From sequence record NC_070982.1: DNA of 64,000 nt; one strand, given 5' to 3'. Shown piece by piece: positions 8,925 to 46,432 of the stretch (positions within the stretch are counted from its first letter, which is position 1; each line of letters opens with the position of its first letter). The position numbers and the translations under genes are program-made. The stretch is from Escherichia phage vB_EcoP-101114UKE3. The notes under the pieces were generated by a model. It saw nothing but the letters and a program-made list of their open reading frames with translations, made no database searches and had not been told where the DNA came from.

Positions 8925-8950
8925 CCCTGCCTTCGGGCGGGGTTTTTTCG
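8925..8950 (+). terminator. Rho-independent terminator with UUCG loop
   Basis: CCCTGCC-TTCG-GGCGGGG followed by TTTTTT. Confidence 0.6.
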
Positions 8951-8976
8951 TTTTAAGACCTATACAAGCCAGTGTG

Positions 8977-8985
8977 TAATGTATA
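8977..8985 (+). promoter_or_regulatory. Candidate phage promoter element TAATGTATA
   Basis: Exact TAATGTATA 34 nt upstream of the ATG at 9019, just after the capsid terminator. Confidence 0.35.
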
Positions 8986-24203: not shown

Positions 24204-25871
24204 ATGCAACAAACTTCTTATGCGTATCTTCGCAGTCAAGACCCAAGAAATCAGATTTATGGTGTTAAACAAGGGGCCGCTTCGGCCTCTCCATACATGG
24301 CAAGACCTGCTTATCCAGCTGCTGATGTTTCTATGTATAACCGGAGACCTCCTGCTTCTCCTGTAGGTTTGTCTTCTCTTGTTGCCAATGCTCAAGAAGA
24401 CCAAGAAGCTATGTTAAATCCGGGATTTAGACAGCGCCTTATGGAAGCAGAGAATCAAGGAACTCCTACAAGCCTTCAGGGTATTGATATTGGTGAACCA
24501 GCTCCTGCTATGAATAACCCAGATCTATCCTCTGATGAGGGTCTACAAGCTGCTGGGTTGATGCCTAGTGACCCACTTCCTGTTACTCCTCCTCGTAAAC
24601 CTCTGGAAGAAACAGATAAAGAGTTCTCTCCAGTTCAGGTGGAACAGGCTCAGAATGTTATTAACACTTTAGCTAATAGTAATCCAGCTCCTGAAGGTAT
24701 GGCTGGTGCAACTCGTGCTAAAGATCAAGAACGTATTAATAATGATATTATGGAAGTAGCTAAAGCTAAAGACCCAGCACAAGCTTGGAATGAGCTTCAG
24801 AAGCAACCGTTCTATCAGAAGTCTAGTTTCTACACTGGCTTAATGGGTGTTGGTCTTTCTATCATGTCAGGTAAATCCCCTATTGAAGCTTTCCAGATTG
24901 GTTCTGGCTTAGCTGCTCAGGATGAAACTAAACAACAACTAGAAGCCAATCGCGATGCTCTGTTAGAACAAGGCTACTCTCAAGATTCAGTTGCTGCTGC
25001 AATTGCTTCGGGAGATCCTTCTCTTCTCAAGATGCGTCAGATGAGTCCTCAGGAGAAAATGGCTCTTGCTGCTCAGGATGAAGAACGTGCCAATCGTGAG
25101 TGGGATAGACGTCAACAGATTCAAGAGAATTCGATGCGGGAACGTGCTGCTGAAACTCGTCGTGCTGCTGAAGAACGTGCTAATGCTCAGTTCGAGAAAC
25201 AGAAAGAACTTATTGGATATCGTGATCAAGTTAAAGCAGAGCGTGCAGAGAAAGCTGCTCAGAGCTTTACTTTCAACCCTAAAGAAGTTCGTCTGGCTCA
25301 GAATACAGCAGAAGGTACTGTTGCTAAACAGTGGGCAGAAAAAGCAGGTCTGTTTAATCAGTCTCACAAAGACTTGGATTTAGCTGACAAAGCTATTAAA
25401 GATAAGGATTATCAAACTGCTCGTTCTGCTTACATGCAGGCTATCATGAACTCCGCAAGGGCAGAAATTGGTGCTAACCGCTCTCTCCAAGCTGATGACT
25501 TGGCTCACTTTGCAGAAGACCCGTCAATCTTTGTTAAGGTTGGTAATACTTGGTCCCTTAAAGCAGGCTATCGTCCTTCTGATGCTGCTCTGTCATATGC
25601 TCGTAAGCAGGCAACTGTTGGTGCTACTTCCGCTGAGAAAGGTGTGAAGGATGCTAAGAAAGCAACAATTGAGGCATATATCGGTTCTGGTATGGATAAG
25701 AAACGAGCGACAGCTCTTGTCAACCGTGCTATTCCTTCTGCTGGTTTCTATGACCCATTCGGTACGTTTGAGAGTGAAGCTGAAGCAGCTGTTGGTGGAG
25801 ATGCTACAAATCCTCGATTAACAGGTGCTCTTTCTTCTTCAGCGGCAGATACGAGTTGGATGTTCCAGTAA
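24204..25871 (+). CDS. Internal virion protein candidate with a central hydrophobic segment (555 aa)
   Basis: Coiled-coil and charged regions with one transmembrane-like stretch; RBS AGGAGA. Confidence 0.5.
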   Translation: MQQTSYAYLRSQDPRNQIYGVKQGAASASPYMARPAYPAADVSMYNRRPPASPVGLSSLVANAQEDQEAMLNPGFRQRLMEAENQGTPTSLQGIDIGEPAPAMNNPDLSSDEGLQAAGLMPSDPLPVTPPRKPLEETDKEFSPVQVEQAQNVINTLANSNPAPEGMAGATRAKDQERINNDIMEVAKAKDPAQAWNELQKQPFYQKSSFYTGLMGVGLSIMSGKSPIEAFQIGSGLAAQDETKQQLEANRDALLEQGYSQDSVAAAIASGDPSLLKMRQMSPQEKMALAAQDEERANREWDRRQQIQENSMRERAAETRRAAEERANAQFEKQKELIGYRDQVKAERAEKAAQSFTFNPKEVRLAQNTAEGTVAKQWAEKAGLFNQSHKDLDLADKAIKDKDYQTARSAYMQAIMNSARAEIGANRSLQADDLAHFAEDPSIFVKVGNTWSLKAGYRPSDAALSYARKQATVGATSAEKGVKDAKKATIEAYIGSGMDKKRATALVNRAIPSAGFYDPFGTFESEAEAAVGGDATNPRLTGALSSSAADTSWMFQ

Positions 25872-25894
25872 TCTAAGACCTAAGTCCTATCTCT

Positions 25895-25905
25895 TATAAT
25901 GTATA
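25895..25905 (+). promoter_or_regulatory. Candidate promoter element TATAATGTATA
   Basis: TATAAT overlapping TAATGTATA, 37 nt upstream of the ATG at 25942. Confidence 0.35.
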
Positions 25906-32181: not shown

Positions 32182-32770
32182 AGAGTTCTCTCCGTGTCCG
32201 TACAACAATCCAGTTTAAATAATCTACTGCATCTTCTACAGTAGAATTATTCGCTAGGTAGTATGTATTTCTCTGACTACCTTCAATGTAGGAACGAGAA
32301 TCTCCTTTAAAATCACAACCTTCACGAATCACCTGAATTACCTGAACATGGAAATGTTTCTCTAGTTCTTCAACTTCGGCTTTGAACCCACCATCAGAGA
32401 AGACGATAACATCATTCTGTGATGGGATACGTTGTTGAATACTGCTAACAGCAAGTTTACCCATGCAGGTCTCACCAAACATAGGCTTCAGGTAATTCTC
32501 GCTAGTTGCAATCATCAAGTCTCGAACTGACTTACCGTCCCATTCAGGACGGCTATGTTCTTTCCACTCACGATCGTTGTACAGCTCCATGAACTCATAA
32601 AGAGGTAGACCTAATGCAGCAGCAGCCACTCGATACATAGGCTCCTTAAAAGCCTTTACATGAGGCCTAAACTCGGTGTTACCAAGTGTTTTCTCTAACC
32701 AAGAATTAGCGATTGTATCTTTACCACAACCCGGTGGTCCATTCAGAATTACTACTAATGGTTTACTCAT
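32174..32770 (-). CDS. P-loop kinase, deoxynucleoside monophosphate kinase-like (198 aa)
   Basis: N-terminal P-loop GPPGCGKDT. Confidence 0.5.
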   Translation of the reverse strand: MSKPLVVILNGPPGCGKDTIANSWLEKTLGNTEFRPHVKAFKEPMYRVAAAALGLPLYEFMELYNDREWKEHSRPEWDGKSVRDLMIATSENYLKPMFGETCMGKLAVSSIQQRIPSQNDVIVFSDGGFKAEVEELEKHFHVQVIQVIREGCDFKGDSRSYIEGSQRNTYYLANNSTVEDAVDYLNWIVVRTRRELYV

Positions 32771-33420
32771 TATTGAATCATCCCTTGAAGATCTTCTTTA
32801 TCAAAGTGCTTCTCTACTACCGCTTCATACAGATCACGATTCTCTGAATAACGACGATAGAAGGTTCCGTGTGAAATTCCCAACTCTTGCTGGATGTGAT
32901 CATGTGGGATGCCGAGAAAGAGCATTGAGAACATGCTTGCCATCTTACGGTTTTCCATAATGTCACTCAGGTCTTGGAAGAAGAAAAAGATTCTAGATTC
33001 CAAGAACGGGTCTCCAGTAGAATCATGCTTATCCATCGCAATCTCTAAAGGACTTTCCCATGAATTCATCTCAGGAGGTCTAAACATATCAGCCTCTGGA
33101 ATAGAGTAGATACGTCGGTCTCCAACTGTCTGGCGATTAGAACGAATCGACCAGATGATATTCTTGACACGATAAGTCATGTGCTCAATATCTTTTTCAT
33201 CAGTGAGCAGAAGTTCTTCTTGCTTTGCAAACACAAAACGCCAAGCGTTCAGTAATACTTCCTGAGCAACATCCTCTGCCTCGTGATAGTCTTTAATGTC
33301 ATACATAAAATACTTATGCACAACTTTCCAATTCTCTCGATAGAATTCATCGAAGGTTGGGTAGTACTTAATAGGTATGCCATGAATACGATAGCGTGTG
33401 GGTGTTGTCTTTTTCTTCAT
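32770..33420 (-). CDS. Sigma-70 family (ECF-like) sigma factor (216 aa)
   Basis: Region 2-like [15 protein letters not shown] and region 4-like [29 protein letters not shown]. Confidence 0.55.
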
Positions 33421-34171: not shown

Positions 34172-34197
34172 AAAAAAGCCACCCGAAGGTGGCTAAG
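34172..34197 (-). terminator. Rho-independent terminator with UUCG loop (minus strand)
   Basis: Minus-strand RNA reads AGCCACC-UUCG-GGUGGCU followed by UUUUUU. Confidence 0.5.
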
Positions 34198-34217: not shown

Positions 34218-34958
34218 TTAGAAAGGGCTGTCATCTTCTTCAAAGGTAGACTGCGGCTCTTCGTTAATAGTAGGGATACTTGGAGTAGCATCTTTCTGTT
34301 CAGTATCAGAAGCTTTAGTAACTTCACGACCAGCCAGAGGGATGTTCTTAGCATCATTAGCTTGGGTCAGAAGATTACGTTGGAATGGGAAGATTGCTTG
34401 ATAAGCAGCCAAGTTAGCATCAGTCTCAGCATACGGTTCGAAGAAGATCAACTCACTACGAGGGGCACCTACAGCATCACGATATTTGGTAGGGATTGGA
34501 GTGATACTCTTAATGGAGTTTTTCTTCTCACCAGCTTTGTTTACATAGGAATTAACCAGAATGTTAACAGGCTGACCTAGCAGCATATCTTTAAACCAAC
34601 CCAAATCACCTTTCAGTGCTTGAACACTTGGGTCGATCATTTTAATCAGATTCAGAATACCAGAGTTCTTAGCTCGTGGGTTTACGTCGAAAGTTTTAAA
34701 CTGGCAAGCAGGACGAGGGTCCAGAGGTTTGCCTTCATTATCAGTCCCTGTTGCATCTACGCCAATCAGCTCAAAAGCTAAGTCCATACGGAAAGCTGGG
34801 TTCTTAGGGGTAACTGCTTTGGTCTTAGGGTCAATCCAAGGGTCACGATTGTGAACACCTAAACCTACAACACGAACAATACGTGCTTCGTACTCACCAT
34901 CAGGGATTACATCGTAGTTGGATTTACGGGATACAGACAGTTCAGGGATCATAGACAT
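34218..34958 (-). CDS. ssb: Single-stranded DNA-binding protein (246 aa)
   Basis: Acidic C-terminal tail EEDDSPF resembling the SSB DDDIPF-type tail; position in the replication module. Confidence 0.55.
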   Translation of the reverse strand: MSMIPELSVSRKSNYDVIPDGEYEARIVRVVGLGVHNRDPWIDPKTKAVTPKNPAFRMDLAFELIGVDATGTDNEGKPLDPRPACQFKTFDVNPRAKNSGILNLIKMIDPSVQALKGDLGWFKDMLLGQPVNILVNSYVNKAGEKKNSIKSITPIPTKYRDAVGAPRSELIFFEPYAETDANLAAYQAIFPFQRNLLTQANDAKNIPLAGREVTKASDTEQKDATPSIPTINEEPQSTFEEDDSPF

Positions 34959-35017
34959 ATTAATATTTCCTTATATAAATTTAAGATTGTTGCTCTCTTT
35001 GAGCGGTTTGTATACTA

Positions 35018-35026
35018 TATACATTA
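35018..35026 (-). promoter_or_regulatory. Candidate promoter element TAATGTATA upstream of the SSB gene
   Basis: Minus strand reads GTGTAATGTATATA about 60 nt upstream of the SSB ATG. Confidence 0.3.
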
Positions 35027-35087
35027 CACTTATACAGATAAGGTTCTATTATACTATAACCTTTTTGGTAGTAGATAATGACAAGTA

Positions 35088-35096
35088 GTAATGTAT
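35088..35096 (+). promoter_or_regulatory. Plus-strand copy of TAATGTATA in the AT-rich intergenic region
   Basis: GTAGTAATGTATATATGG on the plus strand, divergent from the minus-strand copy at 35018-35026. Confidence 0.25.
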
Positions 35097-35372
35097 ATAT
35101 GGTATAGCTAGTAAAGCTATTGCAGGCTTGTATATTGGGCAATCATTGTAACCCTTGCAAGTACCGAAGGGCAGGAGACACCTGCGAGATAAAATAGAGA
35201 ATTAAGGAAATCCTTGATTTAGGTTGTAGGGACTCCTAGGGACTTTGATTCTCTATTTAAAAGAATATTAATTACTTACTACCTAAATAATTAACTAACT
35301 TACTTAAACCAAACTCAAGAATAATAGATAAAAAGATTATTCCTAAGAAAGCTAAAAAGTAAAGGATATAAG

Positions 35373-35993
35373 TTACCATTCAAGTAAACCTTTAAAGTTA
35401 GTTTGTTCTACTATCCTCTGATAAGGTAAGTTAGATTCTGCTTGTTTGCTTAACACCTCTTGTACTTTATCAGTAATTGAATAATCTTTTTGTAATAAAG
35501 AAGCTACCCACTCTTTCCTACTTTCCAGTTCTTTTCTAATCTCTTGCAGAGACACAGCTCTGTAATCAATTTGTTCCATAGAAGTACAGAAGTATCTCCA
35601 ATCTCTGATAGTAGAATTATGAGTATGAGCATAGATATTATACTTTCCTCTCATTTCATCAGAGTGAATAGGAATATGAGTTACCCAAAACTCTTTGTAC
35701 TTATAATCACCACTGATGTGTCTAAAGACTTTCATCATATCAGGGAGAAGTTCTAATCTGTCATGGTTTCCTAAGACAAGATGTTTCTCTCCTTTTACTT
35801 CAGCGATAATATCAAGTGCATATTTCTCAAACACCCAATCACCTGTAAAGAAAGTTTTATCACGTTTAGTAACATGGTCAAACGCTGCTAAGATAGCTTT
35901 GTCGTGTTCTTCAATACTACTAAACTTCTTCCTAAAGTTACAGATGTTACGATGGCCTAGGTGACCATCACCTGCAAAATAAACTTCAGCCAT
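35373..35993 (-). CDS. Calcineurin-like metallophosphoesterase (206 aa)
   Basis: GDGHLGH and GNHD motifs. Confidence 0.6.
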   Translation of the reverse strand: MAEVYFAGDGHLGHRNICNFRKKFSSIEEHDKAILAAFDHVTKRDKTFFTGDWVFEKYALDIIAEVKGEKHLVLGNHDRLELLPDMMKVFRHISGDYKYKEFWVTHIPIHSDEMRGKYNIYAHTHNSTIRDWRYFCTSMEQIDYRAVSLQEIRKELESRKEWVASLLQKDYSITDKVQEVLSKQAESNLPYQRIVEQTNFKGLLEW

Positions 35994-41574: not shown

Positions 41575-41583
41575 TATACATTA
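41575..41583 (-). promoter_or_regulatory. Candidate promoter element TAATGTATA upstream of the basic-protein gene
   Basis: Minus strand reads CATAATGTATACTCC about 35 nt upstream of the ATG; overlaps an 8-bp inverted repeat ACTCCTTA / TAAGGAGT that includes the RBS. Confidence 0.35.
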
Positions 41584-41586
41584 TGT

Positions 41587-42324
41587 TTATGATTTTTCAG
41601 ATTCCATTGCTTTAACAATAGCTTTACAGAAACCTGAACGAACAATATCATCCGATTCGCCATCTACTAGAGCGGCAAATTCAAATAACTGGTGACGGTA
41701 GATGAAATCAGTAGCCCAATCAAGACCGCTCTCACCACGCATGTCGTGCTGGTTAGTGTCCCCCATGCAGAACATCTGAGAGGTTTCACCAAGACGTGTC
41801 ATGATTGAATATGCTTCATCAGGAGTAGTGTTCTGGAACTCATCAACAATCACGATAGCATCGTTGAACGAGCGACCACGTAGATATTCCAGAGGTACGA
41901 ACTCAATATTACCATTACCTACTTGACATTCGTAGAAACCTTTACCGTAGCGCTGAGTAATAACATCAACGATTGGCATTAGGTATGGTTCAAACTTCTC
42001 ACGAAGCCCACCGGGAAGTAATCCAAGACTATTACCCATACCAACAGCAGGTCGGCTTAGGATAATCTTCTCAATCTTCCCACTCTTCAGAGCATCAATC
42101 ACTGTAGAAGTGATTACGAAGGTCTTACCACAACCAGCAGGAGCATCTGTGAATACAACCTGTTTGGTTTTAATTGCATCAAGCAGCTCACTCTGGAATT
42201 GGTTCTGAGGTACTACCGGCTTAGCAAGAACTACTTCTTCAAATTCCCGCTTTCCTTTCTTGGTGACGAGAGCTTCACGACGTAATTCTCTCCGTGATGC
42301 TTTCCGAGATTCTCTACGACTCAT
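41587..42324 (-). CDS. phoH: PhoH-like ATPase (245 aa)
   Basis: Walker A-containing FTDAPAGCGKTF and PhoH-like downstream blocks; RBS GGAGG. Confidence 0.8.
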   Translation of the reverse strand: MSRRESRKASRRELRREALVTKKGKREFEEVVLAKPVVPQNQFQSELLDAIKTKQVVFTDAPAGCGKTFVITSTVIDALKSGKIEKIILSRPAVGMGNSLGLLPGGLREKFEPYLMPIVDVITQRYGKGFYECQVGNGNIEFVPLEYLRGRSFNDAIVIVDEFQNTTPDEAYSIMTRLGETSQMFCMGDTNQHDMRGESGLDWATDFIYRHQLFEFAALVDGESDDIVRSGFCKAIVKAMESEKS

Positions 42325-46146: not shown

Positions 46147-46216
46147 AACTCTCTCCTGTTTCATACAATATTCTTATACTGTATATACATTTGAGAGTTA
46201 TCATATCTACTACCAA

Positions 46217-46432
46217 CTAGTAATAAACCTTGCTGGATATGAATCCAGCACTGTTATGGATATTTTCAATCCAACGATGAATCTCCACCTTTTCAGCGAT
46301 TCCTAAAGCTTTTGTAGCTTTTATAGTTTTCTTAGCAAGACGAGCCTCTTGTCTTGTGTTGAATAATTGAATACAATCACCACCAAGAGCTTTGTTAGCC
46401 CATTTAGTACGAACTGCCCATAATTTATCCAT
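46217..46432 (-). CDS. Small hypothetical protein (71 aa), paralog family member
   Basis: NTRQEAR and SSKVYY motifs shared with 44137..44352 and 46432..46629. Confidence 0.45.
   Translation of the reverse strand: MDKLWAVRTKWANKALGGDCIQLFNTRQEARLAKKTIKATKALGIAEKVEIHRWIENIHNSAGFISSKVYY

Follow-up and report, generated by a model that had tools for sequence, protein, structure and literature searches.

Results

A probable back-to-back promoter pair in the gap upstream of gene 40

We analysed, by computation throughout, the 414-bp gap at positions 34959–35372 in the genome of Escherichia phage vB_EcoP-101114UKE3 (NC_070982.1; the whole 64-kb stretch of DNA examined, to which all positions refer, is called the window). 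The gap lies between minus-strand open reading frames (ORFs) at 34218–34958 and 35373–35993. Our favoured reading, to which we assign a probability of roughly 0.55, is that it houses a back-to-back pair of promoters for the phage sigma factor gp36, of which the rightward one, here called Panti, makes a structured non-coding RNA of about 155 nt. This reading starts from observations made directly on the sequence: the motifs present, how they match characterised promoters, how far they are conserved, and the selection acting on a block within the gap.

The window shows 100% identity to Escherichia phage vB_EcoP-101114BS3 (MZ234015; Kuravirus, Gordonclarkvirinae), a phage related to phiEco32. phiEco32 is a model for the reprogramming of host RNA polymerase by a phage through its own sigma factor, gp36, and the co-factor gp79. 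As set out in PMC8948821 and PMC4331800, promoters used by Escherichia coli RNA polymerase with gp36 have a single consensus element, tAATGTAtA, and start sites 6–8 nt 3' of it; six are published (P6, P13, P26, P40, P58 and P68, the list of Pavlova et al. 2012 as cited in both sources), and all six precede genes. The nonamer TAATGTATA corresponds to this element. It has five exact copies in the window against 0.53 expected, a number reached by 0 of 100 shuffled sequences.

The original prediction had placed copies of this nonamer on both strands of the gap and had viewed them as divergent promoter-like elements in a possible regulatory hub, a view that the present analysis supports. The minus-strand copy lies exactly where it had been placed, at 35018–35026, and is the element of a known gp36-dependent middle promoter: it is the positional ortholog of P40, which stands upstream of phi32_40 in phiEco32. 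The plus-strand copy, formerly given as 35088–35096, is present as an exact nonamer at 35089–35097 and falls outside the published six. In the cryo-EM structure of the P68 open complex, AATG occupies positions −14 to −11, and −37G and −34A contact gp36 residues R187 and Y186; mutation of these two bases abolishes transcription (PMC12276001). The nonamer therefore covers −15 to −7, with +1 seven bases past it, and by this count P40 transcripts would begin at A35011, with a leader of 53 nt, and those of the plus-strand promoter at A35104, 93 bp away.

Upstream of the plus-strand nonamer, at 35065–35077 (−39 to −27, plus strand), lies TTGGTAGTAGATA, the same 13-mer that forms the −35 element of the P68 ortholog. 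It stands at the same distance from the nonamer as in the P68 ortholog, occurs nowhere else in the window, and includes both −37G and −34A, the bases essential in P68. P40 is already known; Panti would be a new promoter of the gp36 class, and its upstream sequence suggests that it belongs with P68.

We aligned 22 relatives, and inspected six Kuravirus metagenome contigs and five more divergent Logan/ENA contigs separately. Both nonamers are invariant across the 22 aligned relatives, including those with an insertion of ~120 bp between the two promoters, and phiEco32 itself carries the plus-strand copy (NC_010324, 36704–36712), with 36719 as the counterpart of the predicted start at 35104. The Panti nonamer is kept in 27 of 28 Kuravirus-type sequences; among the metagenome contigs it is exact in five of six, the sixth reading TAATATATA. 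The divergent relatives have TAATGAATA at the plus-strand site and TAATGTATT at P40. Logan contig L052 (361–655; SRR30464905), whose gp40 is 67% identical, keeps P40 and a divergent TTGGTAGTA...TAATGTATT promoter, followed by ~200 nt of unrelated AT-rich, hairpin-rich sequence. Since this promoter stands there without the conserved block described below, the divergent promoter is the older or more general feature.

What does Panti serve? Downstream of it there is no ORF, and 35104–35372 contains no ATG. The usual location of a gp36 promoter, before a middle or late gene and reading into it, is that of P40 and not that of Panti; this location describes the six known promoters and is not a mechanistic requirement. 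The original prediction that the plus-strand copy would drive transcription antisense to the upstream minus-strand genes agrees with its orientation, which is opposite to that of the surrounding genes. Panti is absent from the published gp36 promoter list as given by secondary sources on phiEco32 transcription, and a 2015 computational study of gp36 promoters covered only the sense strand upstream of genes. Judged from these secondary sources, Panti is apparently unreported. A scan for sigma-70 promoters and terminators gave counts no higher than in shuffled sequences.

All gp36-type sites of the window, including those at 8932–8985, 25852–25905, 41575–41628 and 46184–46237, were lined up for comparison of their upstream elements. 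Their upstream sequences divide them into two classes: TAAGACCTA at −38 to −30 is common to the late P13 and P26 orthologs, and the middle promoters P58 and P68 share TGG(T/A)A at −38 to −34 with the plus-strand promoter of the gap, the P58 ortholog having TGGAA at the position of the P68-type −35 element. This split could underlie the difference between middle and late timing. In P40 position −37 is T and position −34 is A, so that the −37G/−34A feature does not hold for the gp36 class as a whole.

The interval between P40 and Panti is an insertion hotspot. About 120 bp are inserted exactly between the two promoters in L019 (780–923; phage ES17), L007, L034, L036, L037, L039 and L040, and in ES17 a 48-aa ORF is annotated within the insertion.

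A conserved non-coding block downstream of Panti

Downstream of the Panti start, a 96-nt block (35164–35259, plus strand) contains two predicted helices, H3 and H4, and a pair of TAGGGACT repeats. In the alignment 90.6% of its columns are invariant, to be compared with 82%, 90% and 35% for codon positions 1, 2 and 3 of gp40, and with about 2% just downstream of the block. Its identity to this phage is 92–99% where gp40 DNA is ~80% identical, and it is nearly unchanged in Logan/ENA relatives whose gp40 protein is 72–74% identical. The block has no reading frame, and its substitutions lack three-base periodicity. It is thus non-coding and under purifying selection as strong as that on second codon positions of a protein gene.

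Homologs of the gap were found in 97 phage records, all of them phiEco32-group phages of Escherichia or Shigella. IMG/VR scans added five loci only, and the metagenome scan yielded the six Kuravirus contigs plus two chance matches. The gene order (gp40, sigma factor, exonuclease) is shared by phages 7-11 and GAP52 and by the Proteus, Aeromonas and PKM phages, all of which lack the element and the divergent promoter; these distant relatives have only 50–100 bp upstream of the gp40 homolog, and in phage 7-11 the sole promoter there is the sense-strand P48. The element is likewise absent from relatives whose gp40 is 65% identical. It is therefore an innovation of the phiEco32 lineage.

Predicted folding of the transcript

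From the predicted +1 at A35104, the RNA would open with a 5'-terminal hairpin, H1 (AUAGCU-AGUAA-AGCUAU, 35104–35120, plus strand). H1 begins at the predicted +1 in every lineage. Its variants keep pairing (AUAGCU/AGCUAU, AUAGA/UCUAU, AUAGUU/AACUAU, AGAGUUA/UAACUCU), with compensatory changes at two pairs and with G.U pairs workable only on the plus strand; in the commonest variant, AUAGCU/AGUUAU, the G.U pair is a C.A mismatch on the opposite strand. In relatives whose gp40 is 72–74% identical, the site reads ACAUC-AAAC-GAUGU, an unrelated sequence of the same shape. The covariation score of H1 lay above 500 of 500 shuffles, and its count of double-changed pairs (two) was matched by 8 of 500.

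An invariant UUGCA connects H1 to a variable domain (35121–35163, plus strand), which forms hairpin H2 in this phage and is represented by at least four unrelated, lineage-specific hairpin modules. The pair that closes it is G-C, C-G or U-A according to lineage, complementarity being kept, and the domain appears to behave like an RNA expansion stem.

The conserved block follows. Its first hairpin, H3 (GCAGG-AGACA-CCTGC, 35171–35185, plus strand), is the one that had been noticed originally; it exists, with a loop of 5 nt where 6 had been given and 2 nt away from the position first reported. H4 is a long irregular helix (35193–35257, plus strand) whose 15-bp lower stem pairs 35193–35207 with 35243–35257, is extended by U.G and G.U pairs and is capped by two short helices. 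The direct repeat reported at 35227–35244 is confirmed as two TAGGGACT copies at 35227–35234 and 35237–35244 (plus strand), separated by CC, the sole two copies in the window. In the fold model the second copy pairs with UCC(C)U and the first is placed in the apical loop. The G-run and the C-run of H4 vary in length together from lineage to lineage, UCC occurring with GGGA, UCCU with AGGA and UCCCU with AGGGA, which supplies a base-pairing reason for the seemingly concerted change of both repeats. H4 is followed on the plus strand by the tail UAUUU (UUUU in L043 and L049), with 3–4 U, and on the minus strand by a tail of U4–5; with U-runs on both sides, it could therefore end transcripts from either direction.

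Folded as a single sequence, the plus strand reaches −45.4 kcal/mol (z −2.7; 0 of 200 shuffles as good) and the minus strand −35.7 kcal/mol (z −2.0). The consensus fold gives −40.6 kcal/mol with two covarying pairs for the plus strand, and −29.8 kcal/mol with none, and with H1 absent, for the minus strand. The G.U pairs of H1, H2 and H4 become A.C mismatches on the opposite strand, and both stem substitutions found in Kuravirus relatives are A-to-G changes that give a plus-strand G.U. These patterns suggest that the plus strand is the one that folds.

The candidate RNA was compared with known families and possible partners. Rfam 15 (E up to 10; a 3.5-kb query, then a 241-bp query) returned a best score of 16.6 bits against a gathering threshold of 50, with E > 1 and on the minus strand, and ARAGORN found no tRNA or tmRNA in the window. 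The block has no second copy in the window. Three further ideas were set aside: host mimicry (a blastn search with the RNA hit none of 5,426 E. coli genomes), a CsrA sponge (four GGA motifs against about two expected by a rough estimate, no testable signal), and likeness to CRISPR repeats or 6S RNA (no convincing match).

gp40, its leader and its terminator

The gene served by P40, the ortholog of phi32_40 (34218–34958, minus strand), encodes gp40, a protein of 246 aa assigned to phrog_6599, function unknown, and annotated as "hypothetical" in every record. The original prediction had put the gap immediately upstream of a gene for single-stranded DNA-binding protein (SSB); this is plausible for gp40, which is not annotated as such. 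Its C-terminal tip, EEDDSPF, resembles that of host SSB, and its homologs in Salmonella phage 7-11, Cronobacter phage GAP52 and Proteus and Aeromonas phages end in F-DDD-[IVAC]-PF, the tip motif of E. coli SSB. An AlphaFold2 (AF2) model of gp40 had a confidence score (pLDDT) of 83, and Foldseek with this model gave SSB, PrgE, PriB and RPA as top matches, all of them weak (best E 5.5e-4, TM ≤0.46); a single-sequence AF2 prediction (pLDDT 36) was not usable. Searches of Pfam (including SSB), of PDB sequences and with a T7 gp2.5 profile (hhalign) gave no match. gp40 is a probable divergent OB-fold SSB, as judged from the model and the tip, and it probably represents an unrecognised SSB family that copies the tail of the host protein.

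In the −15 to −7 register, the gp40 mRNA would have a predicted 5' untranslated region of 53 nt (34959–35011, minus strand) with the Shine-Dalgarno sequence AAGGAAA. Of the columns of this leader, 71% are invariant. A recognisable counterpart (ACAAACC..AAGAG.GCA.AAC..AAGGAA) precedes gp048, the gp40 homolog of Salmonella phage 7-11 (L029 1378–1449), despite the two proteins being only ~43% identical. By analogy with the autoregulation of T4 gene 32, the gp40 leader may be a translational operator.

On the other side of the gene, 24 nt past the gp40 stop codon, lies the intrinsic terminator AGCCACCTTCGGGTGGCT followed by TTTTT (34177–34194, minus strand); in phage 4E8 a terminator is annotated at the equivalent place. 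From this position P40, gp40 and the terminator therefore form a self-contained unit. The unit stands upstream of the spanin and sigma-factor genes.

Layout of the gap and its neighbours

From ~30.4 kb onward all genes are coded on the minus strand, and the neighbourhood of the gap is one of replication genes (the SSB-like gp40, an exonuclease and DNA polymerase). The ortholog of the sigma factor gp36 (32770–33420) lies three genes downstream of gene 40. The gap had been described as an AT-rich non-coding stretch. It is AT-rich, with 30% GC against 42% for the window, and two parts bring the value down, the promoter region (25.5%) and the 110 bp on the right (35263–35372; 22%), the middle part having 40%. 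It is not non-coding throughout, because a 35-aa hydrophobic ORF, MVTYILYFLAFLGIIFLSIILEFGLSKLVNYLGSK, lies at its right-hand end (35272–35379, minus strand). This ORF, the phi32_41 ortholog (phrog_24970, E 4e-23), runs over the stop codon of the phosphoesterase gene. Thirteen of the 22 relatives have it intact; in the other nine it is lost, frameshifted or otherwise broken. It is both AT-rich and dispensable.

A second ORF within the gap, of 53 aa with a TTG start (34981–35142, minus strand), is annotated in MZ234015 as 101114BS3_016 and spans both promoters. It matches no family and is missing from the phiEco32 annotation, and for these reasons it is probably spurious.

The last large gene of the upstream minus-strand operon (35373–35993, minus strand) encodes a metallophosphoesterase (phrog_547, 4.6e-53; PF00149). 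In this 206-aa protein phrog_547 (residues 1–176) and phrog_14248 (residues 169–206) are joined in a single frame, and the same region is annotated as two overlapping ORFs in SU7, SU10, MN05 and 4E8. This is either a true fusion or frameshift difference or an annotation artefact.

Discussion

A model for the two promoters

How might the gap work? We infer from the sequence that Panti is transcribed, where its RNA begins and ends, and that the RNA has a function. From the middle phase of infection, the gp36 holoenzyme, aided by gp79, would initiate in both directions from the gap. Leftward transcription from about A35011 would make the gp40 mRNA and stop at the strong terminator at 34194–34177. 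Rightward transcription from about A35104 would run opposite to all neighbouring genes and make the non-coding RNA of ~155 nt, in the order 5' hairpin H1, variable hairpin domain, GCAGG/CCUGC hairpin, long irregular helix and short U-run. H1 would protect the 5' end, and H4 is probably where the RNA ends or is processed. The product would build up as a stable small RNA once the middle phase begins, its invariant 3' domain binding a protein or another nucleic acid. The selection on this domain points to a specific partner of one of these two kinds. The RNA would also be fully complementary to any transcript that reads through from the upstream operon.

We suggest tentatively, and at somewhat under even odds, that the rightward transcript represents a new family of phage small RNAs made only once the phage sigma factor controls host polymerase, acting as a sponge or guide for a protein of host or phage, or as a structured primer that marks an origin. 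The second promoter and the candidate RNA look new, and the parts of known kind look ordinary.

Several observations weigh against a plus-strand RNA. Of its 45 predicted pairs 36 are invariant and hence uninformative on structure, and true covariation is limited to H1 and the one closing pair of the variable domain. As most positions in H3 and H4 are invariant, the folded strand is not provable from them, and in L051 the minus strand folds slightly better (−40.0 vs −37.2 kcal/mol). The 5' half of the RNA is not unusually stable (z −0.6 to −1.9). H4 would be a non-canonical terminator, with its A/U-rich lower stem, large interior and 3–4 U on the plus strand, and the terminator scan called nothing within 34959–35372. 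Contig L034 (ERZ1034915 NODE-75, 68 kb), the one reading TAATATATA, has a G-to-A change at the critical −11 and yet an intact block, and L052 has the divergent promoter but unrelated AT-rich sequence in place of the block. No RNA target or partner was found, the longest complementarity elsewhere in the window being 12 nt, about as expected by chance, and literature searches yielded no Kuravirus transcriptome, non-coding RNA or expression data for Panti. The −11 variant of L034 could be used as a natural promoter-down control.

Alternative explanations

The U-run on the far side of H4 raises another reading, which we consider unlikely: the block would act on the minus strand or at the DNA level, as a terminator or RNase III-type processing hairpin that ends the upstream operon, and Panti would be weak or incidental and yield nothing functional. 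The site is where a terminator would be expected, between the upstream genes and P40. On this strand a 10-bp lower stem (AAUAGAGAAU/AUUCUCUAUU) is followed by U4–5 (UUUUUAU in most phages), a better run than that of the plus strand, and both the invariance of most of H3 and H4 and the minus-strand preference of L051 suit this reading too. However, neither a terminator nor a processing site needs 96 invariant nucleotides, the A/U-rich stem with its ~45-nt interior went uncalled by the scan, and the minus strand loses pairs of H1, H2 and upper H4, with no H1 at all in the commonest variants. A conserved Panti with a complete P68-type −35 element is also hard to see as incidental. That the block is instead an operator or iteron, in which the TAGGGACT repeats and a flanking inverted repeat bind a phage protein controlling both promoters, seems very improbable to us. 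The repeats are unique in the window and 10 bp, or one helical turn, apart, they change jointly from GGG to GG in six sequences, and such invariance is typical of protein-binding sites. Against this, they lie 130–150 bp past the plus-strand start and ~220 bp from P40, distances too great for a simple operator; variant lineages have them 9 bp apart in place of 10; the GGG/GG change follows the length of the complementary UCC(C)U, as base pairing predicts; and no candidate binding protein was identified.

The original prediction had also offered the gap as a candidate replication origin, for which we find no positive support. One form of it would be a transcription-primed origin, in which the transcript of a gene-less promoter, hybridised or processed in the G-rich block and the adjacent AT-rich DNA, primes the leading strand; the T7 promoters phi1.1A/B, phiOL and phiOR and the T4 origins oriF and oriG work in this way. 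Panti serves no ORF and faces AT-rich DNA (22% GC, 35263–35372), it lies among replication genes, the block carries several GGG runs on its plus strand, and the divergent promoter is more widely conserved than the block, as L052 attests. We nevertheless rate such an origin as quite unlikely. The AT-rich flank is only 0–10% invariant and has been deleted or exchanged for other AT-rich DNA in nine of the 22 relatives. The turning point of cumulative GC skew is at ~30 kb, together with the change in gene orientation, and there is no switch near 35 kb, although this is a weak test where genes are strand-biased. A T7-type origin leaves the 96-nt invariant, plus-foldable block and the conserved 5' hairpin unexplained, and distant relatives (7-11, GAP52 and the Proteus and Aeromonas phages) keep the gene order without the divergent promoter. 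As for an iteron-type origin, there are two 8-bp repeats only, both placed by the RNA fold in the upper portion of the long helix, and no annotated initiator-like gene in the region examined.

Significance

If true, a seventh, gene-less and divergent promoter of the P68 type would revise the transcription map of phiEco32, and Panti would be a natural test case for the −35 contacts of the 2025 structure. Among about 100 sequenced coliphages that are candidates for therapy, no other 100 nt of this part of the genome are conserved as strongly as the block. As it is conserved yet unannotated, phage engineers who use "empty" gaps for insertion should avoid it. The candidate RNA, if real, would offer a tractable entry to small-RNA function or to origin mapping in the subfamily, and a sponge or guide RNA, or an origin-marking primer, would be without precedent among phages with a sigma factor of their own.

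Comparison with known systems

The closest comparison is with phiEco32 itself: the minus-strand copy is the positional ortholog of P40, and the plus-strand copy has the −35 13-mer and the spacing of P68. Panti differs from the characterised promoters in standing outside the published six, in facing away from all genes and in having no ORF downstream.

Lambda OOP RNA is a short phage antisense RNA with its own promoter. The candidate RNA resembles it as a short non-coding transcript from its own promoter, directed against a polycistronic operon and ending in a hairpin, with a duplex with read-through mRNA that is here predicted. It differs in being about twice as long, in being intergenic rather than over the 3' end of a coding sequence, and in its dependence on a phage sigma factor; its sequence is moreover invariant, which simple antisense action does not need.

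With the origins of T7 and T4 the gap shares a phage-specific, gene-less promoter beside AT-rich DNA in the early or replication region. Those origins have no required conserved structure, whereas in the gap it is a foldable block that is conserved and the AT-rich DNA that is dispensable.

The RNase III sites of T7 (R0.3, R1.1 and others) are intergenic processing hairpins. Like them, and like bidirectional terminators, H4 is a long irregular intergenic hairpin between operons, with an A-run before it and a U-run after it. The block is far more conserved than these, however, its interior is larger, and its extended helix needs G.U pairs that exist on the plus strand only.

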